NCBI GenBank assembly: GCA_041651195.1
Contig: JBAZJR010000002.1
Location: 53,857-117,856, forward strand
From: Patescibacteria group bacterium
Lineage (GTDB): Bacteria; Patescibacteriota; Patescibacteriia; Patescibacteriales; UBA12465
Direction: 5' to 3'
Length of the DNA: 64,000 nucleotides
Position numbers and translations under genes: made by a program. How positions within the stretch are numbered: position 1 is the first letter of the stretch; each line of letters starts with the position of its first letter. Of the stretch, positions 25,462 through 42,367 are shown one piece after another. The notes under the pieces are model-generated. The model was given only the letters and a program-made list of their open reading frames with translations, had not been told where the DNA came from and did no database searches.

Positions 25462-25487
25462 GGAGATACTTGTATTTAACTTTTTTC

Positions 25488-25510
25488 TTAGCCATAAATT
25501 TAGATAATTA
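25488..25510 (-). repeat. 23-nt exact copy of the Bro-N gene leader plus start codon
   Basis: The plus strand ttagccataaatttagataatta is identical to 26362..26384. It includes an ATG (25495) that opens a 16-codon uORF overlapping the 309-aa ORF start. Confidence 0.8.
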
Positions 25511-25532
25511 TTTTGCTCTCGCGAGGCGACGA

Positions 25533-26369
25533 CTACTCAATCTCATGCTTTTTCCGCCCTAAGAAATTATGCGGACTGACAATTTTAGCGCCAGATTGTT
25601 TTTCAATATCTTTCCTGGTTCGTCCGGCGACAGAACCGCCGTCACTAGCGTCTTTTTTAAGAGGCCTAAAACCTTGCGAATCACGAGTTTGAGTCAATTT
25701 AGTCGTCGTCGCTTCGGCCAGCATTGTCAAAATAAGTTCCATATCCTCCATATGGTCGCGTAAATTTTCTCGGTCCAAGCCTTTTAATTTTTTATAATCT
25801 TCAACTTTCAAGCCGAAAGCGCTCTCCATGATTTCGTTGGTTAAAATCGCATATTCTAAACTATTTTTAGCGCCTCTCTCTCGCCATTCGTCAGTCAAGC
25901 TATGACGGACAGCAATACCCCGGCTTCTCTTGTCAATCCAATCCTTAGGATACCCCTTTTTCTCATAAAGCGCCTTCATCCGATCCATGGCTAATTCGGG
26001 ATTTTCAATCTCTTGAAGGCGTTCTTGGCCGACTTTTGCCAACCATTGTTTAAATGGTTCGGCTTTAGGGGAAGGGATTGACTGAATAATACGGAAAATG
26101 CCTTGCAAGCCAGAACAATTTACTTTTTGAATACCGCCGCTAGTTTCAATCGAAAGGGGGGTGGCAATTTGCCCCCACCCTTTTGAAAGTTCTTCGTCTC
26201 TCCGACGCATATCTTTTACATACCCCTCCGGTTGCACGGAATTAGTCAACACTCGAACAACATCAACAATAGCAAAATACCATTGTTCATTATGCCAAAC
26301 ACGACGAACCGGATCATTTTCGAATAAGGCAATATTTTTGCCAGTAGTTTTGTCAGCATTTTTAGCCAT
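25533..26369 (-). CDS. Bro-N / DinD-like (phage antirepressor-type N-terminal domain) protein
   Basis: FENDPVRRVWHNEQWYFAIVDVVRVLTNS and SPKAEPFKQWLAKVGQERL resemble the Bro-N domain pattern. The assignment is by motif resemblance only. Confidence 0.55.
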   Translation of the reverse strand: MAKNADKTTGKNIALFENDPVRRVWHNEQWYFAIVDVVRVLTNSVQPEGYVKDMRRRDEELSKGWGQIATPLSIETSGGIQKVNCSGLQGIFRIIQSIPSPKAEPFKQWLAKVGQERLQEIENPELAMDRMKALYEKKGYPKDWIDKRSRGIAVRHSLTDEWRERGAKNSLEYAILTNEIMESAFGLKVEDYKKLKGLDRENLRDHMEDMELILTMLAEATTTKLTQTRDSQGFRPLKKDASDGGSVAGRTRKDIEKQSGAKIVSPHNFLGRKKHEIE

Positions 26370-26517: not shown

Positions 26518-28245
26518 TCATTCAATCTCATAAACTAATAAAGTCGGGGTCTCTTTAATCAACTGTAAATAAGGCCGCGTATTAAGCCATAAATAAGAAG
26601 CGAAGTCGACTTCTTTCGCCAAGATGATATAGCGCACCGGCGAACCGGCCAGAAGCGGCGCCCCGCTCCGCCCTTGATCCGCGAGCCAGGCGGCTATAAT
26701 CTGGCCGTCCGCGCTCTGGCTATTGTCATAGATCCCGCCCCATTCCATATTCGTGCCGCTTAAAATCTGGCAAGTGAAAAAATGCGGCGCCGGATTAGCC
26801 ACGATCTTCCCTACCCAATTAAAATGCATATACAGATGCCAGGGTAAAAATAAGATCCGATCATTACAGCCGTAAGACTGCGCGGCGCGGTTGATTAAAA
26901 ACTGATCAGTCTCATACCAATCGGCCGGATAGGGCGTCGGGATAACCTGACGATTAAAACCCCAAAGCAAGGATGGCGCGGCCATGATAATGACCGCGGC
27001 CAGAATAACGCCAGCCACAGCCCGGTTCGCGGACGCTATCTTAGCCTGCCGAAGCTTGGCCGCGCCGATAGTCAGATAATATAGATAAATCGGAATAATG
27101 ACCGCCACCCATTTCTGCGGCTCGCGCAGACCTTTATAGAAAGGCAGGTGATCATAGAGAAAGAGATTTAGGCCACGCACTAAGGGTACTTTAACGCCAA
27201 AAGCAAGCACGACTGCGGCGATAAATATTAAAATCAGGCCGACGCTAAATATTTTTTCCTTCTTGGAGCGGCGCCGAAAACTTATAAATACTCCATAGAT
27301 AATAAGAGGAGCCAGAAAGATAAAACTCCTCTGCCAGCCCGGCGTCGTCGTCAGATCCAGATAACGATACTGATCCTTGCCCCAGAAGCCGCTCATGAGT
27401 AATACATTAGACAAGGTTTCACCCGGCGTCTTACCGGCGGTCTGAAAAGCGGCTAAGTCCTGGGCTGTAATTCCCTGATCAACAAAATTAGCCAAAGGCG
27501 AGGCTTTAAGAGCCAGGGCAATCAGCCAATTAGCGTTGACGATTAAAACAATGAAAAAAGAAAATAATAGCGCTAGCCAGAATTTTTTAGTCTGACCGGC
27601 CGCCTTAATCTCTTGGCGCCTAAAGAATACACTTATCAAGAATAATAAATAAAAAGGGACAAGTAAAAAAATAAAATGGATGGAAAATAATAAGGCAATG
27701 GCGGTAAATAGAGCGGCGCGCCACAAGAGCTTAAAATTAAAAGTCCGACTGGCTTCAAGCAGATAAGCTAAAACGAATAATAAGCAGCCATAGGCGGCCA
27801 GAATGCCAAACTGACCATAGAGAGCGCGATCGTAAACGAAGGGATTAAATAAGGCGAAGAGGCTGAGGATAAAAATTGACCCCCGGGAAGGAAAGGACAA
27901 AACGGCGATGGGCGCTTTCTCTCCTTGATCAGTATCGCGATATTCCAAGATAGCTTTAACTAGTACTCGCCCGCCAAACAAAATTAAAAACAAAACAGCG
28001 GCAATAAATATTTTTTCTAAAATCGCGAAAGAAAAGACAAAAGAAAAACCCTTAATGATTAAATTTAGTAAAAATCCAGAACTAATCCAGTTTAATGGGA
28101 TATTCGTCCCCCAGACCATATCGGTAAAAAAAAGGTGGCCGGACTTTAAAAACCAAGGTGCAACAATCATTAAAATAACCAAAATATAAGCCCAAAATAG
28201 GGATAAGGGGTTATAAAATTTTAATTTATTTAGTAATTTTTTCAT
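26518..28245 (-). CDS. 575-aa polytopic membrane protein, possible GT-C-type glycosyltransferase/polymerase
   Basis: At least 12 predicted hydrophobic helices and a C-terminal soluble region of about 120 aa. ATGA overlap with the upstream 928-aa gene. Backbone-like GC. The function is inferred from context only. Confidence 0.65.
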   Translation of the reverse strand: MKKLLNKLKFYNPLSLFWAYILVILMIVAPWFLKSGHLFFTDMVWGTNIPLNWISSGFLLNLIIKGFSFVFSFAILEKIFIAAVLFLILFGGRVLVKAILEYRDTDQGEKAPIAVLSFPSRGSIFILSLFALFNPFVYDRALYGQFGILAAYGCLLFVLAYLLEASRTFNFKLLWRAALFTAIALLFSIHFIFLLVPFYLLFLISVFFRRQEIKAAGQTKKFWLALLFSFFIVLIVNANWLIALALKASPLANFVDQGITAQDLAAFQTAGKTPGETLSNVLLMSGFWGKDQYRYLDLTTTPGWQRSFIFLAPLIIYGVFISFRRRSKKEKIFSVGLILIFIAAVVLAFGVKVPLVRGLNLFLYDHLPFYKGLREPQKWVAVIIPIYLYYLTIGAAKLRQAKIASANRAVAGVILAAVIIMAAPSLLWGFNRQVIPTPYPADWYETDQFLINRAAQSYGCNDRILFLPWHLYMHFNWVGKIVANPAPHFFTCQILSGTNMEWGGIYDNSQSADGQIIAAWLADQGRSGAPLLAGSPVRYIILAKEVDFASYLWLNTRPYLQLIKETPTLLVYEIE

Positions 28246-31028
28246 TCTGCTATTTGTTTAACCTTATTTTTATTATCTTCTTGTTTTCTTTTTCTTCTCT
28301 TTACAAAGTCATAGCCTAGGTAGATAAAGCAACCAAATAATGTCATCATAGAAACCCCTAAACCTATATAAAAATACTTTTGTGGCTCGAATTCAACATA
28401 AACTGAGAAGTCATAAGTACCGTCTATTTTCTTTTTAATCAAACCTTGCTGTTCTAATTCTCCGACATCAACCCACCAGGAATTAGCAAAACCGTTCATT
28501 ATAAAATGTTCATCATTCAAAACAGGTTTTCTAAACATTAGGTCATAAAATCTTCCGTCATATATATTTTCGTTCTGGATAGTTCCTTGATTATTATTAC
28601 TAATGAATTGCCCCACACCGTGGCCGATTAAATTGGGCTGAACATATATTTTCCAACCGGGGTGAAAACTCTCGGAAAATATTAGGGGAAAAGATTCGCT
28701 TGCCCCGGTAACATTAACAATATATTTTGTCGGATTAATTTGTTTATATTCTAACTGAGGTGTTTTAATCGGCTCACTCAAATTCTCGGCGAAAAAGATA
28801 ACATCGCCGGAATTGATAGAGTCCACTAACATATCTTCAACATAAATCTTAAAATCGTATTCTCCTCTATCTAATTCTATTTGGTCAAAATAAGCCCATC
28901 CCTCCCGGTTCGTCCCTGTCCCATCTTTTCCCAATACTTCATTATTTATTTTAATACTAATATTTATACTATTTGCCAAAACACTGCCTTGCTTGAAATA
29001 TATTTTATAGATTGCTTTAACGGGAATATTTAATCGAAAATCTCTAATGAAGGCGCCGCTAGTATACAAATTTAAATCGCTTTGTAATTTTTTCTTTATC
29101 CCTTGATCCGTTGTATCATCTATGGCCAATTTCATTGTTTCTATTTTATCTCGATTAGCACTTACAAGAATAAAAATACTATTAATATTTTTTGAAATAT
29201 TCTTATTTGATGATTCATCTAATTTTAAATCGGGAAAAATTATTCCAGTTTGTGGATTATAATTATTAAAATAAAAAGGTTGATCAATAAAATTTGAATT
29301 ATTAATTATATAAGAAATGGCAGTCGGGGAATATATCTGCGGTAATAAATAATTTTCATTCATCAAATAAAAATCTAATTTGTCGAATGTCTTTATTTTT
29401 TCATACTTCAATAAAATATCTGACACAACACTGGGGGATTGTGAAATATTATTATAATATAGCCAATCAAAATCGTTTCTCTGGATTATATATTTTACAT
29501 TTAAAATTGTCATTAAATTTTCAAAATTTGGATAATCTTTAGTCAATAAATATTTATAAGCGCTGAGCGCTATTCTATTGTCTTTAGTTTCACTACTGCC
29601 CGGTCTTCTTATAATCAAACTCTTGTCAAATAATGTCTCTGGATTGGCATTTGTCTTGCCCCAGTCAAAAACTGCAAAATACTGGGCTGGCATCAAAAAT
29701 ATTCTAGAAATCTGCTTATCTTTTTTTAGAAAATTCATGGCTTCATAATAATAAGACGGGATTTCTTTTATTTTTATATCTTCTGCAAAACATTTCCACA
29801 TAAAAAATGGGAATGCGTTAATCACAATAAGAACTGACAATAGCGCGGTCACGACATTTCTTAATCTAATGTTTTTTATGTTTATCAATAAATATACAGA
29901 CAGAACGGCCAACCCAAAGATATAAACTTGGATAAATTTATAATTTCCTCTGAACATTGCGAATAAAGGCACATTATAATATGCCCATTCATATAAACGC
30001 GCAAAAATACCTTGATTAGTAGCTACCACCATAGGTATAGACAAAATAATCAAAAAAATCACCCAGAATATCCGTTTGCTATTTTTGATAAAAATTATAC
30101 TTGATAATACTATTAACGGTAAAAGATACAGACTGAAAATCAATAATAAATTTTTTAAATAGACGGAAGAATATCTAAAGTAAGGCTCTCCTTCCCATCC
30201 CTGATCAAAGCTTGCTAGCCCTAAAGTTCTGAATACGTTGAGATACGAGCTGGCCTGATTATGACCATATATTGATTCCGATAAAATAGCTGATATATCT
30301 ACTGGGCCTAAGAAATAAAACAAAATACCAGATATCCAATAAAAATTAATCAATAATACGACGAAGAAAGACAGAATTAATTTCTTTAATATATCCTTAT
30401 ATTGACTCAACAAATGATAATTTGAAAATAAATGGAAAGAATAAATAAGTAATACTATCAAGTTAATAGCTATAAGCGGTGGATTTATTCCGGTCATAAA
30501 CAAAACTACAAAAGCCAATCCGATACTATATCTAAAGTAATTTTTGGTTAATAATATCTTATTTATAAAATAAAGCTGTAAAGGCAAAACAACATAAGGT
30601 AGAAGCAGGATGGAATAACCTTGCGTAAAATTTGTGAGGGTGTATAGATTAAAAATATATAGAAAACCGCCCACATATGTATAAATCGAAGTGTTATTAA
30701 ATTCATTTTGAATAAATTTAATAAAAGAGTAAAAACCAACCCATAAAATCAATGCAAAAAAAATCGTCTGACTAGTGCTAATACTAAAGAACCATGAAAA
30801 AAAATAATATATAAAACAGTATGGGAATATATATGATTGACCCCATACCATGGAGCGCCCAAGTGATAAAATATTATCCCAACTATAAAATAGCTTAAAG
30901 AAAGCTTGGGTGGGATTAATGAGTGAATTAAAATTAGAATCTACAATAAATTCACCATTGGGCTTTAAAAAAATGAGGAACAGAAAGAGAAACAGTAAGG
31001 ACATGATGACATTTTTTTTAAAACGCAT
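28242..31028 (-). CDS. 928-aa polytopic membrane protein with large C-terminal extracytoplasmic domain, possible GT-C-type enzyme
   Basis: The N-terminal ~450 aa are highly hydrophobic and multi-TM. A soluble region of about 430 aa and a final TM plus basic tail follow. Very low GC. The function is inferred from context only. Confidence 0.65.
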   Translation of the reverse strand: MRFKKNVIMSLLFLFLFLIFLKPNGEFIVDSNFNSLINPTQAFFKLFYSWDNILSLGRSMVWGQSYIFPYCFIYYFFSWFFSISTSQTIFFALILWVGFYSFIKFIQNEFNNTSIYTYVGGFLYIFNLYTLTNFTQGYSILLLPYVVLPLQLYFINKILLTKNYFRYSIGLAFVVLFMTGINPPLIAINLIVLLIYSFHLFSNYHLLSQYKDILKKLILSFFVVLLINFYWISGILFYFLGPVDISAILSESIYGHNQASSYLNVFRTLGLASFDQGWEGEPYFRYSSVYLKNLLLIFSLYLLPLIVLSSIIFIKNSKRIFWVIFLIILSIPMVVATNQGIFARLYEWAYYNVPLFAMFRGNYKFIQVYIFGLAVLSVYLLINIKNIRLRNVVTALLSVLIVINAFPFFMWKCFAEDIKIKEIPSYYYEAMNFLKKDKQISRIFLMPAQYFAVFDWGKTNANPETLFDKSLIIRRPGSSETKDNRIALSAYKYLLTKDYPNFENLMTILNVKYIIQRNDFDWLYYNNISQSPSVVSDILLKYEKIKTFDKLDFYLMNENYLLPQIYSPTAISYIINNSNFIDQPFYFNNYNPQTGIIFPDLKLDESSNKNISKNINSIFILVSANRDKIETMKLAIDDTTDQGIKKKLQSDLNLYTSGAFIRDFRLNIPVKAIYKIYFKQGSVLANSINISIKINNEVLGKDGTGTNREGWAYFDQIELDRGEYDFKIYVEDMLVDSINSGDVIFFAENLSEPIKTPQLEYKQINPTKYIVNVTGASESFPLIFSESFHPGWKIYVQPNLIGHGVGQFISNNNQGTIQNENIYDGRFYDLMFRKPVLNDEHFIMNGFANSWWVDVGELEQQGLIKKKIDGTYDFSVYVEFEPQKYFYIGLGVSMMTLFGCFIYLGYDFVKRRKRKQEDNKNKVKQIAE

Positions 31029-31133
31029 ATCAATAATTTACTTATATTTAAGATATAATACTCCTAATAACACTTGGCAAATACCATCGGCATCGGGCTA
31101 TAATTTTTTTCATCTATCTTTAGACGATTATTT

Positions 31134-31790
31134 TTAAATTTGATAATCTATTTCCACTATAATATGGCAAGATTTAAATAAAAGCAAAATCAGCGATTTA
31201 AAAAAACTATATTTATTTTGTTTTATTAAATTTATTTTTGTCCTTACCCCTATATCAAATAAATAATTACTTACTTTAAAAGTATACCCACTATTTTTTA
31301 GCAATTTCTCTATATCTTCCTTGGATCTTAAAATCTCATTTCCAAAATCTTGATTTTTATAAACATCTGATGGTACTGAAAATATCATTTTTTTCGATAG
31401 AGAAGAAAAATTTTTTATTATTTGAATAAATTCAAAATCATTAAAATGTTCCATTAACCCTTGCGAAATTATAAAATCAAATTTTGGCAGCCTCTCTATT
31501 TCATTTCTATCTAAAATATTTATATTAAAAAAATTCTCAATTTTGTCGGAAGTATTTTTTTTTATTCTTTCTAATAATTTTTTATCAGAATCAAGAACTG
31601 ACACCTTTAGTTTTGGTAATATTTTTTTAAGCCACAAAGCATGCTGGGCGGGGCCGCAACCAATTTCTAATAGTTTTTCGGGGTTATAAAAAATTATTTT
31701 TATCAAATAATGGTAATGTAAAAGGATATTTGCCGCTGAAAGGTTCCGTTCAGCGTAATACTCGTTCCATGTTTTATCATTAGTCTGCAT
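31134..31790 (-). CDS. class I SAM-dependent methyltransferase
   Basis: LLEIGCGPAQHALWL (motif I) and FDFIISQGLMEHF (motif II/III). Confidence 0.75.
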   Translation of the reverse strand: MQTNDKTWNEYYAERNLSAANILLHYHYLIKIIFYNPEKLLEIGCGPAQHALWLKKILPKLKVSVLDSDKKLLERIKKNTSDKIENFFNINILDRNEIERLPKFDFIISQGLMEHFNDFEFIQIIKNFSSLSKKMIFSVPSDVYKNQDFGNEILRSKEDIEKLLKNSGYTFKVSNYLFDIGVRTKINLIKQNKYSFFKSLILLLFKSCHIIVEIDYQI

Positions 31791-31808
31791 AACTTTTAAA
31801 ATTAGATT

Positions 31809-32903
31809 CTACAGTAAATCTCTAAATACTTTAATATATGCTTCTGCCGTTTTATCCCAACTAAACTGCTTAGAAAAACTATAATTAGAGCTTATTAATT
31901 CATCTCTTTCCCTCTCTCCAAGTTTAATCATGTTGATCATTTTATCAGAAATATCTTTTAAACTACGGGGGTCAACAAGCCAATTCTTATTAGGTGTGAT
32001 TTCTATCAGCGAACTGTTGCAAGATGTAATAACAGGGCACTCGCATGCCATGGCTTCTAAAACCGGGAAACCGAAACCTTCGTAAAAAGATGGGTAAATA
32101 AAAAATTCTGCATTTTCATAAAAGTTTATTAATTGGTCCTCGTTCGCATATCCCCACAATATAACATCATTAATTAAACCAAGTCTTTCAATTACATCTC
32201 TTAATTCAGCCAGTTGATTCTCATCAATTAGACCTGCGATAAGATATTTATATTTTTTCAATTCTGCATTGTTAGACATTACCTCTAATACACTAATGAT
32301 GTTTTTCCTTTTCGGGCTAGTCGTAATGGAAAAAAAATAATTTTCTTTAACAATCCTTTCTTTTCTAATTTTATTTAAAAAAATACTGTTAATACCCGAA
32401 TAAACAACTTTTATTTTATTGTCTGGAATTTTATAGAATTTTATTATATCCTTCTTTGTACTCTCTGAAACAGAGATAATAATATCAGCGATTCTTAGTG
32501 ATCTTTTTAAAAAATACTTATAATAAAAATTAAATATTTTGTTGTAATGTTTCGGATAAATTAGAAACGCCAAATCATGCACAGTTAAAACATATTTAAC
32601 ATTTTCTCTCTTAAAAAATGGCAAAATATGAGCAGGGCCATGAAAGATGTTAATTTGTTCTTTTCTAATCAATTTATTAACAAAAAAAATGTCAAACAAC
32701 AAAGTGCCTAACAAATTTTTAAATACTTTAATTACCTTGGTATCACCGATTCGTTTCGAACCATCTGTTTGAAAAAATACAAATGATAAATCATTTTGGC
32801 TCTTGACCAAATTGTCATAAAGGCATTTTATATAATAAGGTATGCCCGTATTTTCTTGTTGATAGATTCTTGAATTTATACCTACTTTCACAATATTCGC
32901 CAT
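31809..32903 (-). CDS. GT4-family (GT-B) glycosyltransferase
   Basis: FIYPSFYEGFGFPVLEAMACECPVITS is the EX7E-type motif of Glycos_transf_1. Confidence 0.85.
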   Translation of the reverse strand: MANIVKVGINSRIYQQENTGIPYYIKCLYDNLVKSQNDLSFVFFQTDGSKRIGDTKVIKVFKNLLGTLLFDIFFVNKLIRKEQINIFHGPAHILPFFKRENVKYVLTVHDLAFLIYPKHYNKIFNFYYKYFLKRSLRIADIIISVSESTKKDIIKFYKIPDNKIKVVYSGINSIFLNKIRKERIVKENYFFSITTSPKRKNIISVLEVMSNNAELKKYKYLIAGLIDENQLAELRDVIERLGLINDVILWGYANEDQLINFYENAEFFIYPSFYEGFGFPVLEAMACECPVITSCNSSLIEITPNKNWLVDPRSLKDISDKMINMIKLGERERDELISSNYSFSKQFSWDKTAEAYIKVFRDLL

Positions 32904-32908
32904 ACTTA

Positions 32909-34096
32909 TTATTTGATAAAATTGTTTAGATTTTCTATTAATTCATAAATTCTTTTACTGGAATCTCCATCAATAAATTTATTAAAAAATATTTTGAAAT
33001 CTAAATATTTTTTTTGATATGAAGCATCTAAAAAAATACTATCAATATCTTTAATCATCTGTAAAAGGATATTTTCATTATCTGCAAATGGCCCGGGTAA
33101 AATTTTATAATAATCATGTACCAGCTCCCTATTTCTAGTATAATTTTCATAATCATAGGGATAAAATATTACCGGCCTATTCATCAAACAGAAATCTGAA
33201 ACTACGCTAGAGTAATCTGTGATTAAAATATCTGCAAATATCAAGAGCTCTTGCGGATCATCAATTTCATTCGAAAGATCAACGATATTAGAATAGTTCT
33301 CAAAAATAAATTTATTGGCAAGCAGCGGATGATTTTTTATGACGAATAAATAATTATTTTTAAATAAATAATCATTAATTTTAGCCAAGCCAGAGCCTGA
33401 GAATGGTTTCATTTCATCTAGGCTATCCCTAAAAGTAGGGAGATAGGCGATAACCTTCTCATACCTCTCAAACTCTTTTTTATACTTGAAGCTAATATCT
33501 TCTTTATTTAAAAAAAATATATCGTTTCTTGGATATCCAGTTACAATAATTCTATTATTCTTAAAAAAATTCCTTTGCGCATTCTCAAACTCAACTGAAG
33601 ACGAAATAATAACTTTATATAATTTTGATTCCCTGAACCAAAAAAAATTTAACAACTTATAAAATAAATTTTCTGGTCCAATATTAAAATCTAATTTTTT
33701 TAAGCCCACTCCGTGCCATAAATTAATAATATTAAAGTTTCCCAAAAGAAAAGTTATCCCAGTGATATCTTGAGCTGCTGATTCAATCACTAAATATTTG
33801 GCTCTCAAAATCTGCCACATACCAAAAAATGAGTAGAGATATGCTACTGGTTTTGAGTCTGCTTTTAATAAATCGAGTATTTTTAAACTTCTGGTAATCC
33901 AAACTGGATTATATTTACAATCTTTTTTATTTAATAAATAAAGATAAAAATATTTAGGATTCCCTGTAAATTTACGGCCGAAATAAGAACCAAATATTAT
34001 TAAATTATTTTTCTTTGGAATGATATAAGAAAAAAACCAATAAAAGGGGATGAATAATAAATTTAATAATATTTTTTTAAAATTTATCATAAACAA
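32909..34096 (-). CDS. CDP-polyol phosphotransferase of the TagF/TarL (Glyphos_transf) family
   Basis: N-terminal TM. YLPTFRD and ITDYSSVVSDFCLMNRPVIFYPYDYENY are characteristic of TagB/TagF/TarL enzymes. Confidence 0.8.
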   Translation of the reverse strand: MFMINFKKILLNLLFIPFYWFFSYIIPKKNNLIIFGSYFGRKFTGNPKYFYLYLLNKKDCKYNPVWITRSLKILDLLKADSKPVAYLYSFFGMWQILRAKYLVIESAAQDITGITFLLGNFNIINLWHGVGLKKLDFNIGPENLFYKLLNFFWFRESKLYKVIISSSVEFENAQRNFFKNNRIIVTGYPRNDIFFLNKEDISFKYKKEFERYEKVIAYLPTFRDSLDEMKPFSGSGLAKINDYLFKNNYLFVIKNHPLLANKFIFENYSNIVDLSNEIDDPQELLIFADILITDYSSVVSDFCLMNRPVIFYPYDYENYTRNRELVHDYYKILPGPFADNENILLQMIKDIDSIFLDASYQKKYLDFKIFFNKFIDGDSSKRIYELIENLNNFIK

Positions 34097-34108
34097 TGGT
34101 TGCGCTAG

Positions 34109-35014
34109 TTAACTAAAATAAATGTTCTGATCATTTAAAACTTTTAACTGGTAATCCTTATTAAAAGAAAAAACTATTTTCTCTATTTTTTCTTTTTGTT
34201 TTTTAGAGTGATCAACTGCTACTAATAAAGCTGGCTTCTGCTCTCTTATTATTTTCTCTAAACCAAGTATAGCCTTATATTCATATCCTTCGATATCCAT
34301 TTTTATTAAATCAATCCTTCTATCTTCTAAAAAATCATCTAACTTAACAATACTAATTTTTTGCTTACCTTCTATGCTGACATTCAAATCGAAATCTTTA
34401 CTATTATTTATAGAGTGACACAGTATGTTATTTGAAATAAACATTTCTCCCTCCTCGTTCTTATCTCCAGCCGCTTTTTTAAATAGTTCAATATTTTTAT
34501 AATTTTTAAGATTATTTTTAAGATTTTTAAAATTTTCCTCCTCTGGCTCAAAGGCTAATATTCTCGAATTAGGATATAATTCTTTTATAAACAACGAAAA
34601 AAATCCAATATTTGCACCAAGATCAATAATAGTAGCGTCCTCTGCGAGTTTTAGATTATTGACCTGATAAATATTTTCAAAAAATATTTCATTCAGCACG
34701 GCGAATAGACATCTTATTTTTTCAGGAAAATCAAAAAAATTTAAAAAAATGAACTCATCTTCTTTTTGATATAAATTTTGTAAAATTCTATATTTAGCAC
34801 TATAAATATATTCAATAAATTTATTTTTTTTATCTACCCGTTTAAAGGCAAGAAAAAATTTTTGTTTTAAGTTATATTCTTTAAATTTAATTAATTCCAC
34901 CAAAAGCGCTAATCGCCAAAAAAATCCTAATTTCCCCCTTACATTACTCTCAATTCCTGTCATATAGTTATATATTCCCCCATAATCATATAATTTCTTG
35001 ATTTTTTCGGTCAT
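34109..35014 (-). CDS. FkbM-family methyltransferase
   Basis: IIDLGANIGFFSLF, and IDLIKMDIEGYEY near the C-terminus. Confidence 0.75.
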   Translation of the reverse strand: MTEKIKKLYDYGGIYNYMTGIESNVRGKLGFFWRLALLVELIKFKEYNLKQKFFLAFKRVDKKNKFIEYIYSAKYRILQNLYQKEDEFIFLNFFDFPEKIRCLFAVLNEIFFENIYQVNNLKLAEDATIIDLGANIGFFSLFIKELYPNSRILAFEPEEENFKNLKNNLKNYKNIELFKKAAGDKNEEGEMFISNNILCHSINNSKDFDLNVSIEGKQKISIVKLDDFLEDRRIDLIKMDIEGYEYKAILGLEKIIREQKPALLVAVDHSKKQKEKIEKIVFSFNKDYQLKVLNDQNIYFS

Positions 35015-35018
35015 ATTT

Positions 35019-36386
35019 TTATTTTCTAATACTAATGATCTGACCTGTAAGATCAGAGAGGCATGTTTTTAGGGTTTCTTCAGCTACTTTTTTGGGGTCC
35101 AATAAAAGATTTTTTGGCTCTTTACCGAAATTATTTGTCCGCATTGGCGTATTGGTTCGTGATGGACATATAGCATTTATACTAATATCTCGGCTATACA
35201 ATTCTTCAGAGATGGCCTGGACAAAATTAACTATGGCGGCTTTAGTGGATGAGTATATTGAATATGTTTCCCTACCTCTAGTATAAGAGCTAGAAGTAAA
35301 AAGGGCAATTGAACTTTTTTGTGCCATAAAATCGATAGCATATTTGATTAAATTCACTTGAGCTACATAATTTATATCTATTTGTCGTGCAACCTCTCTC
35401 CTAGAAAAATCTTCTAATTTCTTTCTCTGTAAAATTCCGGCCGTTGATATTAAAAAATCAATTTTACCGTACTTTTTATTAAAATTGTAAAAAGTTTTTT
35501 TCACTTTATCAATATTACAAATATCAACGCCATTACTTAATGAATATCCAGATACATTGGCCTCTGATTTATCACAAATTTTAAATAATTCTCTACCTAT
35601 GCCACTACTATGACCAAATATAATTATATTCTTCCCTTTTAGCTTCTTCTTTGCTAGAGCCAGCCTATCTGTTGAAACGTTTCTCATCTGAAAAAGTTGA
35701 TCAGCGATGTGAATATCTAATGGATAGGTTATTTTTATATTTTCCTCTTCACCGCTAACCACATAAATATCGCCTAATCCATAATGCAAAATTAGACCAC
35801 AATCATCGGTAGATTCATTAAATTTATCGCGCATCGCAAGTTCATGAGCTTTTTTAATAATAGAAAGATGGAAGCCTTGCGGAGTCTGCCCTCTTCGGAA
35901 ATTAGACCGCCTGGGGATATTGGAAATTATGCTATGCTCATTAATTTCGATTAACGTATCAGGGGACGGGACTGCGACATCTACCGAAATAAATTTATCT
36001 AATGCTTTAATTACATCAGAAATTATTCGTTGCGATACAAAAGGTCTAACCGCATCATGAATTAATATTTTTTTTACATCGTCTTCGCGGCAACAAAAAA
36101 TACCTATTCTTGATGATTCTTGTCTGGTTTCCCCACCAGATACTATTTTTGTAACTTTTCTAATTTTTTCTCTTATCACTATTTTTTTACATTCATTTAA
36201 TATATTTTCTTTTGTAACAATAATGATTTCATCAATGTCTGGGTTTTTCTCAAAAATTTTAAGAGTGTGCAGCAAAACCGGTTTTCCTGCTAATTTAGTC
36301 ATCTGCTTTAAGAAACCGTCACTATTAAATCTTGCCCCCAGTCCTGCCGCTAAAATGACCACTACATTTTTTTTATTTCTTTTCAT
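35019..36386 (-). CDS. bifunctional IspD/TarI-like cytidylyltransferase + short-chain dehydrogenase (Bcs1-like CDP-ribitol synthase candidate)
   Basis: N-terminal VVILAAGLGARF...KQMTKLAGKPVL. C-terminal SDR with GHSSGIG, YSSTKAAI (YxxxK) and NAICPS. Confidence 0.8.
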   Translation of the reverse strand: MKRNKKNVVVILAAGLGARFNSDGFLKQMTKLAGKPVLLHTLKIFEKNPDIDEIIIVTKENILNECKKIVIREKIRKVTKIVSGGETRQESSRIGIFCCREDDVKKILIHDAVRPFVSQRIISDVIKALDKFISVDVAVPSPDTLIEINEHSIISNIPRRSNFRRGQTPQGFHLSIIKKAHELAMRDKFNESTDDCGLILHYGLGDIYVVSGEEENIKITYPLDIHIADQLFQMRNVSTDRLALAKKKLKGKNIIIFGHSSGIGRELFKICDKSEANVSGYSLSNGVDICNIDKVKKTFYNFNKKYGKIDFLISTAGILQRKKLEDFSRREVARQIDINYVAQVNLIKYAIDFMAQKSSIALFTSSSYTRGRETYSIYSSTKAAIVNFVQAISEELYSRDISINAICPSRTNTPMRTNNFGKEPKNLLLDPKKVAEETLKTCLSDLTGQIISIRK

Positions 36387-37239
36387 ATTTTTTTATTTTT
36401 CCTAAAAAATATCCTATTCCCCCAAAACCAAATTCAAAAGTTTTCATAAAAATCATTCCGATATAAACTGCTGGATTGGAAAATAAATATTTAATATTTC
36501 TAAAATATATCAAGTATCTATTTAAAATATTAATCTGCCAAGCAAACTCTTGTGAATGCTTTTCTGCAAAAATATTTGCAGTATGTGCGTAATTTAATTT
36601 CTTTTTAATAATTTTTAATAAATGTAATTTACCTTCATTATGCCATAAAAGATTTTTCGTTCTTCCTATTTTGTATCCAGCATCTTTTACTCGTATATCC
36701 AAATCTTTATCTTCAGAAAAAATCATTTCCTCATTATGCCCACCAATTTCCCTGTAAATATCCGCCCTAAGGCATCTGACTGACTCAATTTGTTCGACCC
36801 CTCTATAACATTTTTTTTCCAGCCATTTGCATTTAGCCCAAAACGTTGTCCCGAAAGATTCCTCTGGTATAACTAAGGCGTCAAATCCCTTATTAATTAG
36901 GTCGACACATTCTTCAAGTAATTTATCAGAGGCTTTCATGTCAGAATCCAGATGTAACAAAATTTCTCCGGATGAGAAATCCGCACCCCTATTCCTTCCT
37001 TGGGCCATTGATTGATTTTTTTCTATATATTTAATATTTAAACCTTTTTCTATATACTGTTTGCATAATCTCTCTGGTTCATCGGTACTTCTAGAATCAT
37101 TATTTACTATAACTTCAAATTTTTTATATGAAGAAAATAAAAAAGACTCTAAAAAATCATTTAAATTAATGTAACTATTATAAATTGGAACGATAATTGA
37201 AACTAGGGGATTATATTGTTCTGATATTTTCTTATCCAT
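36373..37239 (-). CDS. GT2-family glycosyltransferase
   Basis: VSIIVPIYNS start of the GT-A fold, NNDSRSTDE, and a LHLDSDM DxD-type motif. 14-nt overlap with the downstream gene. Confidence 0.8.
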   Translation of the reverse strand: MDKKISEQYNPLVSIIVPIYNSYINLNDFLESFLFSSYKKFEVIVNNDSRSTDEPERLCKQYIEKGLNIKYIEKNQSMAQGRNRGADFSSGEILLHLDSDMKASDKLLEECVDLINKGFDALVIPEESFGTTFWAKCKWLEKKCYRGVEQIESVRCLRADIYREIGGHNEEMIFSEDKDLDIRVKDAGYKIGRTKNLLWHNEGKLHLLKIIKKKLNYAHTANIFAEKHSQEFAWQINILNRYLIYFRNIKYLFSNPAVYIGMIFMKTFEFGFGGIGYFLGKIKKYEKK

Positions 37240-37347
37240 AAATAAGCTAAAAATAATATTACTAGTTTTTTATAACTTTTCTCAAAATTTATTTTTTGTC
37301 CCATTACTAGTTATTAACTTTATATTTATTTTGATTACAGTTATATT

Positions 37348-38046
37348 TTAAAATTTTTTAACTTTTTTCATTTTTATAAATATATTTGCTACCCCACTTT
37401 TTTTCGAATATTCCTTATCCGCCATGATATTCATAAAATTATCAAAGAATGGTTTCCTTCTAAATATCCATTTAGCTATATACATATTAATTGCTCCAAA
37501 AATTGTCCAGAAACCACCATTATTAATTATTTCTTTTACCTCAAAACCATTTTCTCCGGCTATTTTTTTAATAAATTTAGTCGAGTAATGTCTATGCCCA
37601 AAATACCATGCGGGATCGAACATGATTGAAAATAAACTATTATAAGGAGTGCTCAAATAAAAGTAACCATTATCAATCAAAACTCTATTAACCTCTTTAA
37701 ACATTTGTTTCTCGGTATTTTTTGGTATATGTTCTATGACCTCGAAAGAGACAACCGTATCGAATCTATTATTTCCAAACGGTATATCTATGGCGCTACC
37801 TATTTTAAAAAATACTTTGTCTGATCTTATACAGTCTTTCGCCGTCTTTAAATCTTTTTCAGATATTTCGATACCAGTAATGCCAGAAAAGCACTTCCTA
37901 AGCATATTAAATTCGAGCCAACCATAACCGCATCCGATATCTAAAATATTTTTATTTATAATATCCTGATCGTTAATAAAATTGATAGAAAAAAGCGTTC
38001 TGCCATGTAGTATATCCGATGGCTTCTCTTTTATTATATTATTCAT
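37348..38046 (-). CDS. class I SAM-dependent methyltransferase
   Basis: ILDIGCGYGWL (motif I) and FDTVVSFEVIEHI. Confidence 0.75.
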   Translation of the reverse strand: MNNIIKEKPSDILHGRTLFSINFINDQDIINKNILDIGCGYGWLEFNMLRKCFSGITGIEISEKDLKTAKDCIRSDKVFFKIGSAIDIPFGNNRFDTVVSFEVIEHIPKNTEKQMFKEVNRVLIDNGYFYLSTPYNSLFSIMFDPAWYFGHRHYSTKFIKKIAGENGFEVKEIINNGGFWTIFGAINMYIAKWIFRRKPFFDNFMNIMADKEYSKKSGVANIFIKMKKVKKF

Positions 38047-38821
38047 ACTTTTTATTTACCAAGAACAGGGTTCTATTTAAAATCTCCGATTTTATTTTAA
38101 AGTTATTATTTAATATGAATTTTTTAAAGCTACCCATGTTATCCATCTGACTTATATCATGAATTTCAACAAAAATATATTTAATATTATTTTTTATAAA
38201 ATCTATGGAATTATAAAAAACATCATACTCTCCACCTTCTATATCCATCTTTAATAAATCAATAATTGATATAGAATTAAGATTACAAAAAGTTTCAAGC
38301 TTTATAACCTCTACTTCTTGTGTGTTTTTATTATCTATATGTTGTCTGTCGTCAAAAACATAAAAAGCATCATAGTCTCCGCCTATATTTAAAAAACTTT
38401 TACCATCTTTCCCGCATAAAGCCATATTAAAAGCTTTGATATTGTTTGCTGAATTGTTAATTATAATATTTCTTTGCAAGATACCGAAGTTTTCAATACT
38501 AGGTTCTATAGAATATATTTTAGGATTTTGGCTAACTAAAATATTATAAGAGTATAGAGAGAATGCACCAATATTGGCACCGACGTCTAATATCACAGAG
38601 TTTATTAAATTTTTAAAATATACTTTAGGATATTCTAAATCTCCGTTTACAATAATCACCTCGGCAGCATCTGTAGATCCGCCTCTTGTTATAAAATTTA
38701 AACCATTTTTTAATTTATACAATATTTCTTCATTATTTAAAAACCCCAAGAAATCCAAAACAAACAAATGTAAATTTCTTATAACTTTTATTGTCAGTAA
38801 TACTTTTTTAAATAAATTCAT
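38039..38821 (-). CDS. FkbM-family methyltransferase
   Basis: ILDVGANIGAFSLY and IDLLKMDIEGGEY. 8-nt overlap with the downstream gene. Confidence 0.75.
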   Translation of the reverse strand: MNLFKKVLLTIKVIRNLHLFVLDFLGFLNNEEILYKLKNGLNFITRGGSTDAAEVIIVNGDLEYPKVYFKNLINSVILDVGANIGAFSLYSYNILVSQNPKIYSIEPSIENFGILQRNIIINNSANNIKAFNMALCGKDGKSFLNIGGDYDAFYVFDDRQHIDNKNTQEVEVIKLETFCNLNSISIIDLLKMDIEGGEYDVFYNSIDFIKNNIKYIFVEIHDISQMDNMGSFKKFILNNNFKIKSEILNRTLFLVNKKYE

Positions 38822-38822
38822 T

Positions 38823-39932
38823 TTATTTATTTTCCCCCGTAACTAAATTTAAAAATTTCTGATAACTCTTGCTAAAATTAATTCCTTTGCTAAGATCCCA
38901 AGCTAATCTTCGCAATTTTTGATATTCAATTTTCTTCTCGAGAATTTCTAGTATACTATTTGTAAAATTAATTATATTATTTTTTTTACACACAACTCCA
39001 GTATTTCCACTTCTAACCACATCTCTCAGCCCATCAACATCATAAACTATTGCTGGAGTCCCCTGACTGGCCGCCTCAGTTACCACTAATCCCCAACCCT
39101 CCTTGACCGATGTCGCACAAAGTATGTGCGATCTCTGTAATAGTTCTAGCTTCTTAGCCACATCTACCCGGCCTAAATATTCTATAGAACCTCTATATGC
39201 ACTCACCTTAATCAGCCGCAAAACTTTCCGACCATAGAGCCCCTCTGCCTCACCAGCTACAATCAACCGTAAATCTGGCAATTTTTTCTTAGCCATTTCA
39301 AAGGCTTGGATAATATGATCCGTCCGTTTCATCGCCCGGATCGAACCTAGAGATAGAATAGTCGGAGCTTCGTATTTTTTAATACTGTCTAAATCTTGGA
39401 CTGGTTCAATCTCTATGCCTTCGCTGATGATATTAATATTATCATCTCTAAAACCGAATCTCATGAGGTCTTTTTTTGTACTCTTCGATATGGTTATAAC
39501 TTCCCTGTCCCGCAATAACCAGAGATACAGCGGCTCTAAAAGATAGCCGACCAGACTGAGGGGAAACCAGATTTGATAAAACCATATCACTCGACATAAC
39601 TGATGGACAAATAATATATTTCTCTCTCTCACATAAAACTTACAAAAAAACGGAATGGTATTTACTTCATCGATGACTAAATCGGCCCAACCGCGCAAGT
39701 TTTTCTTATAATATCTATAAGCCTGCCAATAGACCGTCCAACGATTCCCTAGCCTAATGATTTTAAATCCATCTCGCGTCTCCTCCTCTTTTCCGTCCGT
39801 AAATCCGCCGACTAAGAAAATAACCTCATGCCCGTCAGCGGCCAAACGCTTGGCTAATTCTTCATTGACCGTTTCCGCTCCGCCCGCCTGCGGATGCGAC
39901 TTATCTTTCCAGGTGAACCATAATATCTTCAT
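38823..39932 (-). CDS. GT4-family (GT-B) glycosyltransferase
   Basis: [27 protein letters not shown] motif. N-terminal GGAETV as in Glyco_trans_4. 4-nt overlap with uxs. Confidence 0.85.
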
Positions 39933-40861
39933 ATCTTCCCCCTAAAATACTCAATCGTTTTCTTTAATCCCTCTTCTAATTTAATCTTCGGCTCCCAGCC
40001 AAACTTCTCTTTCGCTAAAGATATGTCCGGTTTCCTCTGCCGCGGATCATCGGCCGGCAGATCTTTATAAACTATTCTGCTCTTACTTTCAGGAATCGCC
40101 TTTAACACTATTTCCGCCAGTTCTTTGATCGTAAATTCGCCCGGATTACCAATATTGACCGGGCCGACAAACTTTTCTTTATTGTTCATCATCTTTATCA
40201 AGCCCTCCACCAAATCATCAACATATTGGAAACTCCGGGTCTGCGAACCATCGCCATAGATCGTGATATCTTGGTTCTTTAAGGCTTGGACAATAAAATT
40301 AGAAACGACCCGGCCGTCGTTTTCCGCCATATTCGGACCATAAGTGTTAAAAATACGGACGACCCGGACATCGGTCTGATACTGACGATAGTAATCAAAG
40401 AACAAAGTTTCGGCGCAACGCTTGCTTTCGTCGTAGCAAGACCGGATGCCGATGCAGTTGACCCGGCCCCAGTAACTTTCCGGCTGGGGATGGACTTCCG
40501 GATCGCCGTAAACCTCGGAAGTTGAGGCCTGAAGAATCAGCGCTTTATTGTCTCTGGCTAGATTTAAAAGATTGATCGCGCCTATCACCGAAGTGACCGT
40601 GGTCTTGACCGGGTCGTGCTGATAATGGACGGGTGAAGCGGGGCAGGCTAGATTATAAATCTGCTCGACCTCCATCTTGATCGGCGCGACGACATCCTGT
40701 TCGATAAACTGGAAATTTTTATCATCCAGTAAACCATCAATATTCCCCCGGCTACCGGTCTGCAGATTATCTAAACAAACAACATGATTACCGTCGGCCA
40801 AGAGGCGCTTGCACAGATGCGAACCGATAAAGCCGGCGCCGCCGGTGACTAGTATTTTCAT
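39929..40861 (-). CDS. uxs: UDP-glucuronate decarboxylase (UDP-xylose synthase)
   Basis: [38 protein letters not shown] and [16 protein letters not shown] match UXS-type SDRs almost motif for motif. Confidence 0.9.
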
Positions 40862-41015: not shown

Positions 41016-41040
41016 TTAATATTAGCTATATAATATTAGC
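41016..41040. repeat. TTAATATTAGCTAT motif plus an adjacent TAATATTAGC copy at the abiEii stop
   Basis: The 14-mer at 41016..41029 is identical to 42311..42324 and is the reverse complement of 24509..24522. The 10-mer core is repeated at 41031..41040. Confidence 0.75.
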
Positions 41041-41773
41041 CTAAACGTTTTATTTCCTCGTTAATAAACATCATAGTTTCTATCTTTAACGTTTTTCTAA
41101 GCTGACGGAAACGTTCATAAGGGATAAGCGGGTTTAAATCCTGATCTAAAACCGTTTCCGTAATATGCTCCTCAATAAATAACCGTAATTTATTAAAAAA
41201 TTCCCGCAGCTCCAGACCGGTCCTTTCGGTGATGACCGCGCCATTGTAAGTATAGCCGTTTAAAAAGAAATGGTGAATATCATAAATATCCCGTCCGGCC
41301 AGCGACCGGTTACGTTCGTAACGGTCGATAACGGCCACTAACTTATTAGCAAACATCGTCTCTATATTCTGGCAGATAACGATGCGCTCAATATCCGTCA
41401 ATTTAGTCGGCTCATAGACATTGGCTTTAGGGGCCGGAAAAGTAATGTCAATTTTCAGAGTATTGCGGCTAGCCGGATCCTTGGTCGGATATTTTAAAAA
41501 GAATTGCGGCACCTTGGCACTCTCGTCTTTTATTTCTAAACCTAAATCGACAAAAACTTTCTTCAGAGCGCGCCGCACTTTAGGTAAATCCTCCGTCTGT
41601 CCAACGTAATCAAAATCCAAATCAACAGAAAAACGATCCAGGTATCCGCTCATCGCGGCGCAAGTTCCGCCTTTAAAATAAAACACCGATAAAAGAGGAT
41701 TATCTACAATCGCCACCAGAACGCGATAAAGCCAAGCTTTATGGACGGCGTCTTGCGGGGTAATGGTAATCAT
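41036..41773 (-). CDS. abiEii: AbiEii/AbiGii-family nucleotidyltransferase toxin (type IV TA)
   Basis: FYFKGGTCAAM...RFSVDLDFDY nucleotidyltransferase motif of DUF1814/AbiEii. 4-nt overlap with the upstream partner. Confidence 0.8.
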   Translation of the reverse strand: MITITPQDAVHKAWLYRVLVAIVDNPLLSVFYFKGGTCAAMSGYLDRFSVDLDFDYVGQTEDLPKVRRALKKVFVDLGLEIKDESAKVPQFFLKYPTKDPASRNTLKIDITFPAPKANVYEPTKLTDIERIVICQNIETMFANKLVAVIDRYERNRSLAGRDIYDIHHFFLNGYTYNGAVITERTGLELREFFNKLRLFIEEHITETVLDQDLNPLIPYERFRQLRKTLKIETMMFINEEIKRLG

Positions 41774-42348: not shown

Positions 42349-42349
42349 A

Positions 42350-42367
42350 ATACACATATATGTATAT
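42350..42367. promoter_or_regulatory. 18-bp near-palindrome ATACACATATATGTATAT at the abiE transcription start region (candidate AbiEi operator)
   Basis: 8 of 9 base pairs are symmetric. The core ACATATATGT is perfect. It lies between the -10 and the ATG. Confidence 0.45.

Follow-up and report, generated by a model that had tools for sequence, protein, structure and literature searches.

A low-GC gene block in a Falkowbacteria-type glycan locus: a probable exchangeable cassette with a predicted ribitol-phosphate module

Why does a contig from a bacterium belonging to the candidate phyla radiation (CPR) carry a compact run of very low-GC glycan genes, relatives of wall-teichoic-acid enzymes among them, and what would these genes make? 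The window analysed here, a 64,000-nucleotide stretch of contig JBAZJR010000002.1 (Patescibacteria group bacterium, assembly GCA_041651195.1), holds such a run of nine minus-strand genes at 28242-38821. The initial annotation, made from the letters alone, had read these genes and the two beside them as an acquired pathway for a teichoic-acid-like or capsule-like polymer. We arrive at another explanation, to which we give a probability of roughly 0.7: the block is an exchangeable, strain-specific cassette of a conserved Falkowbacteria-type surface-glycan locus, present here in a ribitol-phosphate allele.

The drop in G+C content (GC) that had drawn attention to the block is real. Per gene, the nine genes have GC of 0.25-0.33 and third-position GC (GC3) of 0.21-0.29, and the remaining 45 open reading frames (ORFs) of the window average 0.488 for GC (sd 0.054, minimum 0.35) and 0.566 for GC3 (sd 0.089). 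Sliding 1-kb windows run at 25-34% GC from 28 to 39 kb and at 40-60% in other parts of the window, and tetranucleotide distances, taken against the remainder of the window, are 0.55-0.63 within the block and 0.12-0.27 outside it. Some details of the first description need adjusting. The interval 28242-40861 had been said to contain twelve genes and has 11 ORFs; ftsI and dus, put at 55-60% GC, measure 53% and 51%; and the drop does not begin exactly at an ATGA junction, as the next gene (26518-28245, minus strand), which encodes a 575-aa membrane protein, is itself low in GC for some 300 nt at its 5' end. The low-GC block proper thus spans about 28.0-39.03 kb. On the other side, the glycosyltransferase family 4 (GT4) gene at 38823-39932 (40% GC) and the UDP-xylose synthase (UXS) gene at 39929-40861 (47% GC), both on the minus strand, have host-like composition, so the apparent fading of the signal across 38.8-41 kb amounts to two conserved genes outside the block.

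Whether such a block is an island or part of something larger can be judged from relatives. A scan with the window's histidyl-tRNA synthetase (HisRS, 46042-47364), taking one genome per species, returned 80 loci, the best match being 84% identical. Those with informative titles are metagenome-assembled genomes (MAGs) of Candidatus Falkowbacteria, Patescibacteria or Parcubacteria, and many third-party annotation (TPA) records among the 80 are titled otherwise, for example "uncultured Gammaproteobacteria." By this marker the host is a Falkowbacteria-type CPR bacterium, in line with the CPR-like genome first suggested. We then compared all proteins of the locus with the 80 sibling loci by tblastn. 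The nearest relatives keep the same order of HisS, a polyprenyl-phosphate glycosyltransferase family 2 (GT2) enzyme, a UDP-glucose-dehydrogenase-like (UGDH-like) protein, UXS and the GT4 of 38823, at 62-87% identity overall. UXS is 77-83% identical and syntenic in five siblings, the GT4 is 68-71% identical to its syntenic counterparts, the polyprenyl-phosphate GT2 (43609-44604, minus strand) is 62-77% identical in six siblings, and the UGDH-like protein (42407-43273, minus strand, 288 aa) has 289-aa orthologues at 87% and 76% identity in loci L002 and L003. For the nine low-GC genes this comparison found no counterpart.

What the siblings have instead is other low-GC genes. Directly after UXS/GT4, GC in sibling loci falls to 23-34%. 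The cassette of L002 encodes a GT2, a methyltransferase and a UDP-galactopyranose mutase (Glf), and that of L003 a GT2, a GT4, two methyltransferases and a hexapeptide acetyltransferase. Two further loci, L091 and L092, show the other flank as well: UXS, in some cases the GT4, 7-9 low-GC genes, an orthologue of the 575-aa protein (58-64% identical; L091 10001-11584, L092 10001-11707), a Wzx flippase, a transmembrane (TM) protein of about 210 aa, a secreted protein of about 480 aa and RNase HII. In L091 the cassette genes have 25-35% GC and the frame genes 46-59%, and the cassettes of both loci differ in content from that of the window. The left end of the window's frame matches, with RNase HII at 18284, the secreted protein at 19815 and Wzx at 22017. 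Sibling cassettes, too, end in polytopic proteins without a family, one of 648 aa (about 16 TM segments) and one of 574 aa, neither matched in lax Pfam scans (E<=5). Since siblings hold different low-GC cassettes between the same anchors, the "island" is, judged by gene order and composition, one allele of a hypervariable cassette within a conserved glycan-locus frame. The idea of a free-standing acquired island is therefore given up, and that of an acquired pathway survives in part: the nine low-GC genes were exchanged, being absent from siblings, and UXS and one GT4 belong to the frame.

How might such cassettes be exchanged? Against a sibling orthologue, the frame GT4 is 70-93% identical up to about codon 300 and 0-40% beyond, and at the same point its GC drops from about 50% to 23-30%. 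Because the collapse of identity and the fall in GC coincide, we place the right-hand recombination breakpoint near 39030, inside the 3' end of this gene, an assignment weakened a little by the fact that the C-terminal tail varies in all orthologues of this GT4. Insertion by a mobile element was rejected: Pfam scans found no integrase or transposase gene within 26-41 kb, the window's tRNAs lie only at 17.4 and 18.1 kb, and a search for flanking direct repeats turned up only AT-rich chance repeats. With no integrase, neighbouring tRNA or genuine repeat, replacement of the cassette by homologous recombination in its conserved flanks would be the economical explanation.

The content of the cassette was checked by Pfam, NCBIfam and PDB searches, which upheld the enzymes first proposed (UXS, the GT4s, the GT2, the FkbM and class-I methyltransferases and the 928-aa protein). 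Following the minus strand, the cassette begins with an FkbM methyltransferase at 38039-38821 (Methyltransf_21, E 4e-19; GC 0.25), a class-I S-adenosylmethionine (SAM)-dependent methyltransferase at 37348-38046 (Methyltransf_11, E 8e-19) and a GT2 at 36373-37239 (Glycos_transf_2, E 1e-19; GC 0.29). A bifunctional protein follows at 35019-36386, joining a cytidylyltransferase to a short-chain dehydrogenase/reductase (SDR) in the architecture of Bcs1 (IspD, E 3e-45; adh_short, E 8e-28). Next come another FkbM methyltransferase at 34109-35014 (Methyltransf_21, E 4e-18; TIGR01444, E 3e-30) and a 395-aa TagF-family CDP-polyol phosphotransferase at 32909-34096 (Glyphos_transf, E 4.5e-66). A GT4 at 31809-32903 (Glycos_transf_1, E 1e-28, with Glyco_transf_4; GC 0.29), a second class-I SAM methyltransferase at 31134-31790 (Methyltransf_12/25/23; GC 0.25) and the 928-aa polytopic protein, a GT-C-fold glycosyltransferase by its matches, at 28242-31028 (GC 0.30) complete the set.

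Three of these genes, for the Bcs1-like, FkbM and TagF-like proteins, form a module that recurs elsewhere. Locus L082 has all three in the same order at 67%, 70% and 69% protein identity (74% DNA identity across 3.5 kb), as a low-GC patch of 25-28% against about 40% around it, flanked by Wzx–GT2–GT4 and by a 907-aa homologue of the 928-aa protein. In locus L087, IspD and SDR are accompanied by a TagF homologue of 72% identity, and a metagenome scan with the Bcs1-like protein gave two useful loci, L093, on the same contig as L082, and L094 (52% identity).

The initial assignment of 35019-36386 as an IspD/TarI domain fused to an SDR stands. The IspD domain covers residues 8-231, the motifs GLGAR (15), GHSSGIG (258) and YSSTK (378) are intact, and TarI-type ribitol-5-phosphate cytidylyltransferases (3f1c, 4jis, 6xhp; E 1e-29 to 1e-32) account for three of its four best PDB matches. 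The Haemophilus influenzae type b (Hib) enzyme Bcs1 is a characterised reductase and cytidylyltransferase that makes CDP-ribitol from ribulose-5-phosphate, NADPH and CTP (PMC10299916). We propose the same role, CDP-ribitol synthase, for the window protein.

The placement of 32909-34096 in the TagF family is equally well borne out. The Glyphos_transf profile (PF04464) matches at 223.7 bits against a cut-off of 22.1, nearly full length (residues 21-388 on profile positions 4-366 of 367), and the PDB matches are TagF, TarL and Cps3D at E 1e-18 to 1e-21. Residue H128, in LWHGVG, aligns with TagF H444 (TWHGTP) and TarL H300 (mutated to N300 in 8va1), the catalytic base of the family (PMC10901376). 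The polymerases TagF, TarL and TarK carry an extra N-terminal domain that the single-addition primases TarB and TarF do not have (PMC10901376). In the window enzyme the catalytic domain starts at residue 21, with no polymerase-type N-terminal domain, and its size is that of the primases; the best NCBIfam match is TarF (131 bits; TarL, 87 bits), both scores lying far under their cut-offs. Since the enzyme is a minimal module without that domain, single addition is favoured: it more likely adds ribitol-phosphate to a methylated heteroglycan flipped by Wzx than builds poly(ribitol-phosphate).

Which donor would it use? Published donor-site motifs are G-A-F for ribitol and P-L for glycerol. The window enzyme has G131-L132-K133, that is, the site-enlarging glycine, no proline and no phenylalanine. 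Among its best 120 homologues, VGLK occurs only in three proteins encoded beside IspD and SDR genes; the next relatives have TPLK, and one of them lies beside a phosphoenolpyruvate (PEP)-mutase phosphonate gene set. Because the motif tracks the neighbouring donor genes, it supports a donor larger than glycerol, most simply ribitol-phosphate. The ribitol donor of the first description is thus well supported by gene context and only partly by the donor-site motif. We also observed, at 6188-11215 of locus L083, a TagF homologue (51% identical, TPLK) directly downstream of three donor-type genes, for a cytidylyltransferase–PEP-mutase fusion, a thiamine pyrophosphate (TPP) enzyme resembling phosphonopyruvate decarboxylase and an iron-containing alcohol dehydrogenase; this suggests that the TagF-type enzyme there transfers a phosphonate from a CMP-activated donor.

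Two membrane proteins at the left edge of the cassette are candidates for the last steps. The 928-aa protein matches Pfam GT-C_AftD (PF11847) at E 7e-19. Its AlphaFold2 model has pTM 0.73 with a membrane core mostly above pLDDT 70, and Foldseek places mycobacterial AftD (6w98; E 2e-13, 628 columns) first, followed by PglB, STT3, AglB, DPY19 and ArnT. It combines an AftD-like membrane core, with a conserved D30 in the first outer loop, with an outer C-terminal half that varies and a TM anchor at the C terminus. Only the core aligns with AftD; the outer region from about residue 570 to 880, where carbohydrate-binding modules of the AftD type would be sought, is mostly of low confidence (pLDDT below 50 at 574-754 and 799-831). 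Its homologues share the N-terminal 60% at 55-63% identity and differ in the outer C-terminal part. The 575-aa protein, which anchors the cassette on its left, belongs to a family conserved in Patescibacteria and is without a Pfam match even at E<=5. Its model is confident (pLDDT 84, pTM 0.87), and GT-C enzymes (AftD, AglB, STT3, PglB, AftA) take all of the first 14 places in Foldseek. It is distantly paralogous to the 928-aa protein (E 1e-7), its residues D42 and D139 do not vary, and a conserved P-W-H-x-Y motif follows the last TM segment. A profile search gave 874 cluster representatives at E<=1e-30, nearly all of about 550 aa. An NCBIfam match to MmpA, a corynebacterial trehalose-lipid transport factor of unclear mechanism, reached 88.7 bits against a cut-off of 210 and was not used for function. 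GT-C enzymes act outside the membrane on lipid-linked sugars, and the models make the 575-aa family a candidate ligase, polymerase or oligosaccharyltransferase for CPR envelope glycans.

The Wzx–GT2–GT4…GT-C arrangement is also found in loci L082 and L088, where the polyprenyl-phosphate GT2 adjoins Wzx and is 49-52% identical to that of the window. L088 (k141_653096) comes from the sample that gave the window, has 53-60% GC and is labelled Thermoplasmatota at NCBI. It has the same frame, with Wzx, the polyprenyl-phosphate GT2 (52%), GT4 (57%), a variable block and an AftD-like GT-C (59% over the membrane core); either the frame is common to both domains or this contig is mis-binned. As a separate observation, L082 (15077-16273) and L086 (4825-6069) encode a membrane protein of about 400 aa with a LytR_C domain between the GT-C gene and a homologue of the 575-aa family. 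No LCP catalytic domain is on record for these proteins, and the window has no counterpart.

Put together, these parts suggest a route. The frame would provide UDP-xylose through UXS, the first GT4, the polyprenyl-phosphate sugar synthase (GT2), Wzx and the 575-aa GT-C. In the cytoplasm the Bcs1-like enzyme would make CDP-ribitol from ribulose-5-phosphate, NADPH and CTP, while the frame GT4 and the GT2 and GT4 of the cassette assembled an oligosaccharide on a polyprenyl carrier. The TagF-like enzyme could then attach ribitol-phosphate to this lipid-linked oligosaccharide as a phosphodiester, the four methyltransferases would O-methylate the glycan, and Wzx would flip the lipid-linked product across the membrane. 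Outside, the AftD-like 928-aa protein and the 575-aa GT-C may add a lipid-carried sugar, polymerise the product, transfer it to an acceptor, or do more than one of these. Cassettes would be exchanged by homologous recombination in the flanks, one breakpoint lying in the 3' end of the frame GT4.

Of the alternatives, the one that fares best concerns the final step. The oligosaccharide might be moved en bloc to an S-layer-like protein or pilin by the 575-aa GT-C acting as an oligosaccharyltransferase, in the style of the archaeal Agl or the bacterial Pgl/PglL systems. Its size and layout fit, with about 12-13 TM segments and, at the C terminus, a small domain outside the membrane; its matches to AglB, STT3 and PglB are nearly as good as that to AftD; and in the siblings it is translationally coupled to Wzx, its gene overlapping the Wzx gene in L091 and L092, and followed by a conserved secreted Ser/Thr/Gly-rich protein. 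Homologues of cassette genes, moreover, carry archaeal labels in public records, and methylated glycans are typical of archaeal N-glycans. However, the protein has no WWDYG-type motif, the conserved motif after the last TM segment being P-W-H-x-Y, and the fold match fails to separate oligosaccharyltransferases from arabinosyltransferases. The archaeal labels go back to MAG binning and could not be confirmed. We regard this version as unlikely, though worth keeping in view.

The initial reading fares less well. It proposed a self-contained, acquired teichoic- or capsule-like pathway in which a TagF/TarL enzyme polymerises ribitol-phosphate and initiation, export and anchoring are non-canonical. 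A TagF-family gene does lie near a gene of the CDP-ribitol-synthase type, the block is absent from siblings, and the missing Tag genes are missing indeed: Pfam scans of 50 window ORFs found no PF00953, PF03808, ABC2_membrane or LytR_cpsA_psr, hence no TagO/TarO, TagA/TarA, TagGH or LCP protein, and the sole ATP-binding cassette (ABC) system in the window is MacB/FtsX with HlyD. However, the TagF-like enzyme is a catalytic module of only 395 aa, with TarF and not TarL as its best NCBIfam match, and it lies in a frame of the Wzx type, which in siblings surrounds cassettes free of polyol-phosphate genes. UXS and one GT4, moreover, were not acquired with the block. The helper candidates named at the outset (Wzx at 22017, the polyprenyl-phosphate GT2 at 43609 and the large membrane proteins) belong to the same locus, which is conserved in siblings. 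Wzx is an ordinary export route for heteroglycans, so that a missing TagGH is no argument for unusual export. A teichoic-acid-like chain, and a poly(ribitol-phosphate) polymerase to make it, are therefore improbable, and we rate this explanation low.

Several points weigh against our own interpretation of the block as an exchangeable ribitol-phosphate cassette. The search of the 64-kb window found neither a WecA/MraY-type or WbaP-type initiator nor a Wzy_C polymerase or an LCP ligase (no match to Wzy_C, Bac_transf or Glycos_transf_4). The window by itself thus does not complete the pathway, and an initiating transferase must lie outside it; Wzy proteins, however, are often too divergent for profile searches. 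The UGDH-like protein, to which one would look for the UDP-glucuronate that UXS needs, consists of UDPG_MGDP_dh_N and the central domain, without the C-terminal UDP-binding domain and with no room for it downstream. This short form is itself conserved (window 42407-43273, L002 5633-6502, L003 13355-14224; 288-289 aa, 76-87% identity). The same three-gene module is also low in GC in L082, so that low GC is perhaps intrinsic to such cassettes and identifies no donor. The Bcs1-like protein reaches 159.8 bits with NF001183 (ribitol-5-phosphate cytidylyltransferase), whose cut-off is 166, and the donor motif of the TagF-like enzyme is neither the GAF of ribitol enzymes nor the PL of glycerol enzymes. 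The ribitol assignment rests mainly on the Bcs1 architecture and on gene adjacency.

This last weakness leaves room for another donor. The IspD–SDR protein could be an enzyme of the methylerythritol phosphate (MEP) pathway or make some other CDP-alcohol, and the TagF-like enzyme could move glycerol-phosphate or another group. The IspD equivalog model (TIGR00453) scores 179.3 bits against a cut-off of 181.3, as near to its cut-off as the ribitol model is to its own; close CPR homologues of the TagF-like enzyme lie beside other donor genes, as with the PEP-mutase set, and the family is flexible in its donor; and the motif departs from the canonical GAF. Against this, an SDR reductase joined to the cytidylyltransferase is how the CDP-ribitol enzyme Bcs1 is built, most of the best PDB matches are TarI enzymes, no glycerol-3-phosphate cytidylyltransferase was found in the window, and the proline that narrows the site for glycerol is replaced by glycine only in the homologues linked to IspD and SDR. 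With TagF adjacency in three loci in addition, a MEP-pathway role was rejected as the primary interpretation, and a donor other than ribitol-phosphate seems to us somewhat less probable even than the self-contained teichoic pathway.

Finally, a chimeric assembly, in which a low-GC fragment of another metagenome organism had been joined to a Falkowbacteria contig, would account for the abrupt compositional step and foreign tetranucleotide signature in a contig from a short-read metagenome assembly (ENA ERZ27247363, 185 kb), but we reject it as very improbable, since continuous or overlapping ORFs span both junctions (the right one within the full-length GT4 ORF), the junction of the 928-aa and 575-aa genes occurs in contigs of three different assemblies (ENA, 185 kb; NCBI/JGI, 191 kb; Logan), independent sibling MAGs show a matching GC step at the same position, and the cassette stands exactly where the frame expects one. 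The window's proteins are also present on the 191-kb NCBI contig of a Patescibacteria MAG, whose annotation already lists the TagF-like protein as "CDP-glycerol glycerophosphotransferase family protein" and calls the one of 928 aa "alpha-(1->3)-arabinofuranosyltransferase family protein." The TagF-like protein is deposited as MFA5184156.1 (393 aa), starting two codons downstream of the TTG start, and an exact look-up of the ORF from the TTG start gave no match.

The remaining frame genes bear on the proposed route. UXS, a UDP-glucuronate decarboxylase, matches human UXS1 (4gll, 2b69) at 370 bits and E 1e-109, with the next family, epimerases, at E 2e-40. The polyprenyl-phosphate GT2 is of the GtrB/ArnC/PgfS type (Glycos_transf_2, E 2e-27; PgfS, 189 bits; ArnC, 134 bits), has C-terminal TM helices within residues 240-307, and would probably supply a lipid-linked sugar used by a GT-C enzyme. 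The flippase at 22017-23306 (minus strand) is of the Wzx type, in the MOP family (Polysacc_synt, E 1.5e-14; about 12-14 TM segments), and the same 429-aa gene follows the 575-aa orthologue in L091 and L092. At 19815-22033 on the minus strand lie a 206-aa protein with four TM segments, overlapping Wzx, and a 480-aa secreted protein (19815-21257), neither of which has a Pfam match even at E<=5. The latter has orthologues after Wzx and the small TM protein in L091 (13661-15106) and L092 (13774-15240), and combines an N-terminal TM or signal segment with GYGYGY repeats, a Ser/Thr/Gly-rich middle and two C-terminal repeats of about 45 aa. It is possibly a surface protein or the glycan acceptor.

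Compared with its siblings, the window carries two insertions in the frame. An AbiEii/AbiEi abortive-infection toxin-antitoxin pair (41036-42357, minus strand; Pfam and PADLOC), without a match in sibling loci, separates the UGDH-like gene from UXS, and three minus-strand genes at 23311-26369 separate the 575-aa gene from Wzx: a PDC-S01 ATPase (AAA_14/DUF4143; E 3.7e-153), a 309-aa protein and PDC-S13 (Bro-N domain; E 3.5e-108). We also noted a Gp49/HigB-like gene at 19228-19614, adjoining the gene for the secreted protein. Anti-phage defence and toxin-antitoxin genes thus sit inside the glycan locus, at positions where the siblings have none. CPR bacteria, attached as they are to the cells of their hosts, face heavy exposure to phages, and this interleaving is as one might expect of a region in contact with phages; phage pressure may also be the selective cause of cassette diversity.

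How does this locus compare with known systems? The closest general likeness is to the Wzx/Wzy O-antigen and cps loci of E. coli, Salmonella and S. pneumoniae. There, too, the genes between conserved flanks are low in GC and serotype-specific and encode glycosyltransferases, enzymes that modify sugars and a specific polytopic membrane enzyme, recombination takes place in the flanks without mobile-element signatures, and Wzx is present. In contrast to those loci, the window has no recognisable Wzy, chain-length regulator, WaaL, LCP or initiating transferase, its conserved membrane enzymes are of the GT-C(A) fold (the 575-aa family without Pfam match, and the AftD-like type), and its host, a CPR bacterium, is monoderm-like and has only about 1 Mb of genome.

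For the ribitol-phosphate itself, the pneumococcal teichoic acid (TarI/TarJ, TacF) offers the nearest parallel. CDP-ribitol is made in the cytoplasm and ribitol-phosphate is part of a lipid-linked repeat that a Wzx-type flippase moves, as in the route proposed here, with no cytoplasmic poly(ribitol-phosphate). The window differs in having a fused Bcs1-type enzyme with an SDR rather than separate TarI and TarJ of the zinc-alcohol-dehydrogenase type, has no choline (Lic) genes, shows no LCP or TacL-type ligase, and is predicted to methylate heavily. Region 2 of the Hib capsule locus likewise combines a bifunctional CDP-ribitol enzyme with a TagF-like GT-B transferase in a serotype-specific region, but Bcs3 is a 1,200-aa multi-enzyme polymerase with export by an ABC transporter (a group 2 capsule), whereas the window has a stand-alone 395-aa module in a Wzx-type frame. 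With the wall teichoic acids of S. aureus and B. subtilis W23 the window shares the Glyphos_transf family, the catalytic histidine and, by prediction, a CDP-polyol donor. However, TarO, TarA, TarGH and LCP were not found in the window, the polymerase N-terminal domain is missing, and the donor site reads GL and not GAF. On its recognisable genes, the locus is not a member of the canonical Tag/Tar wall-teichoic-acid pathway.

As for the membrane enzymes, GtrA/B/C, ArnC/ArnT and PgfS/PgfM resemble the window in encoding a polyprenyl-phosphate GT2 together with GT-C enzymes that use its product outside, although no GtrA-like small flippase was recognised in the window locus. Mycobacterial AftD matches the membrane core of the 928-aa protein in sequence and fold, but at only 13-15% identity; it is longer, at about 1,300-1,400 aa, and the outer domains of the window protein differ and are poorly modelled.

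Some of this is already known: low-GC variable glycan loci are ordinary in bacteria, and the individual enzymes are automatically annotated in public records. Literature searches on teichoic acid, S-layer glycosylation and glycan islands in CPR found, within the library searched, no such system described, and no paper on ribitol-phosphate or teichoic-acid-type glycans in CPR. One paper proposes rhamnose polysaccharides "instead of teichoic acids" in CPR. At the left edge of the window (74-964) we observed RmlD, a dTDP-4-dehydrorhamnose reductase, beside a mur/ftsI cell-wall cluster, which may point to another polymer of this organism, one that contains rhamnose. What is new is the presence in Falkowbacteria of a glycan cassette, swapped as we propose by recombination, with a predicted ribitol-phosphate module, an advance in context and not in kind, together with the recognition, from structure models, of a "hypothetical" 575-aa frame protein as a probable member of a widespread, Wzx-coupled GT-C family, likely the enzyme of the final step.

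It is tempting to look further. An envelope-glycan assembly line based on GT-C enzymes and not yet characterised may be common to Patescibacteria and perhaps to some DPANN or other archaea, with swapped low-GC cassettes and plug-in TagF-family "CDP-X phosphotransferases"; we offer this tentatively and think it more probably wrong than right. If it is true, Wzx, the polyprenyl-phosphate GT2 and one or two GT-C enzymes, including the Wzx-coupled family of about 550 aa, would be the constant parts, and as polymerase, ligase or oligosaccharyltransferase the GT-C enzymes would take the place of Wzy, WaaL or LCP. Lineages would swap low-GC cassettes and so change the glycan, and which donor each TagF-family enzyme uses would depend on its neighbouring gene and on the residue at the position of TagF P447, giving ribitol-phosphate here and a phosphonate in L083.

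The surface chemistry of CPR bacteria is almost unknown, and this locus offers clonable targets in 35019-36386 for CDP-ribitol formation and 32909-34096 for its transfer. The picture we draw is that of a Falkowbacteria lineage that keeps a serotype-like cassette in its surface-glycan locus, one allele of which is predicted to add ribitol-phosphate and methyl groups, with defence genes interleaved among the genes for the glycan.

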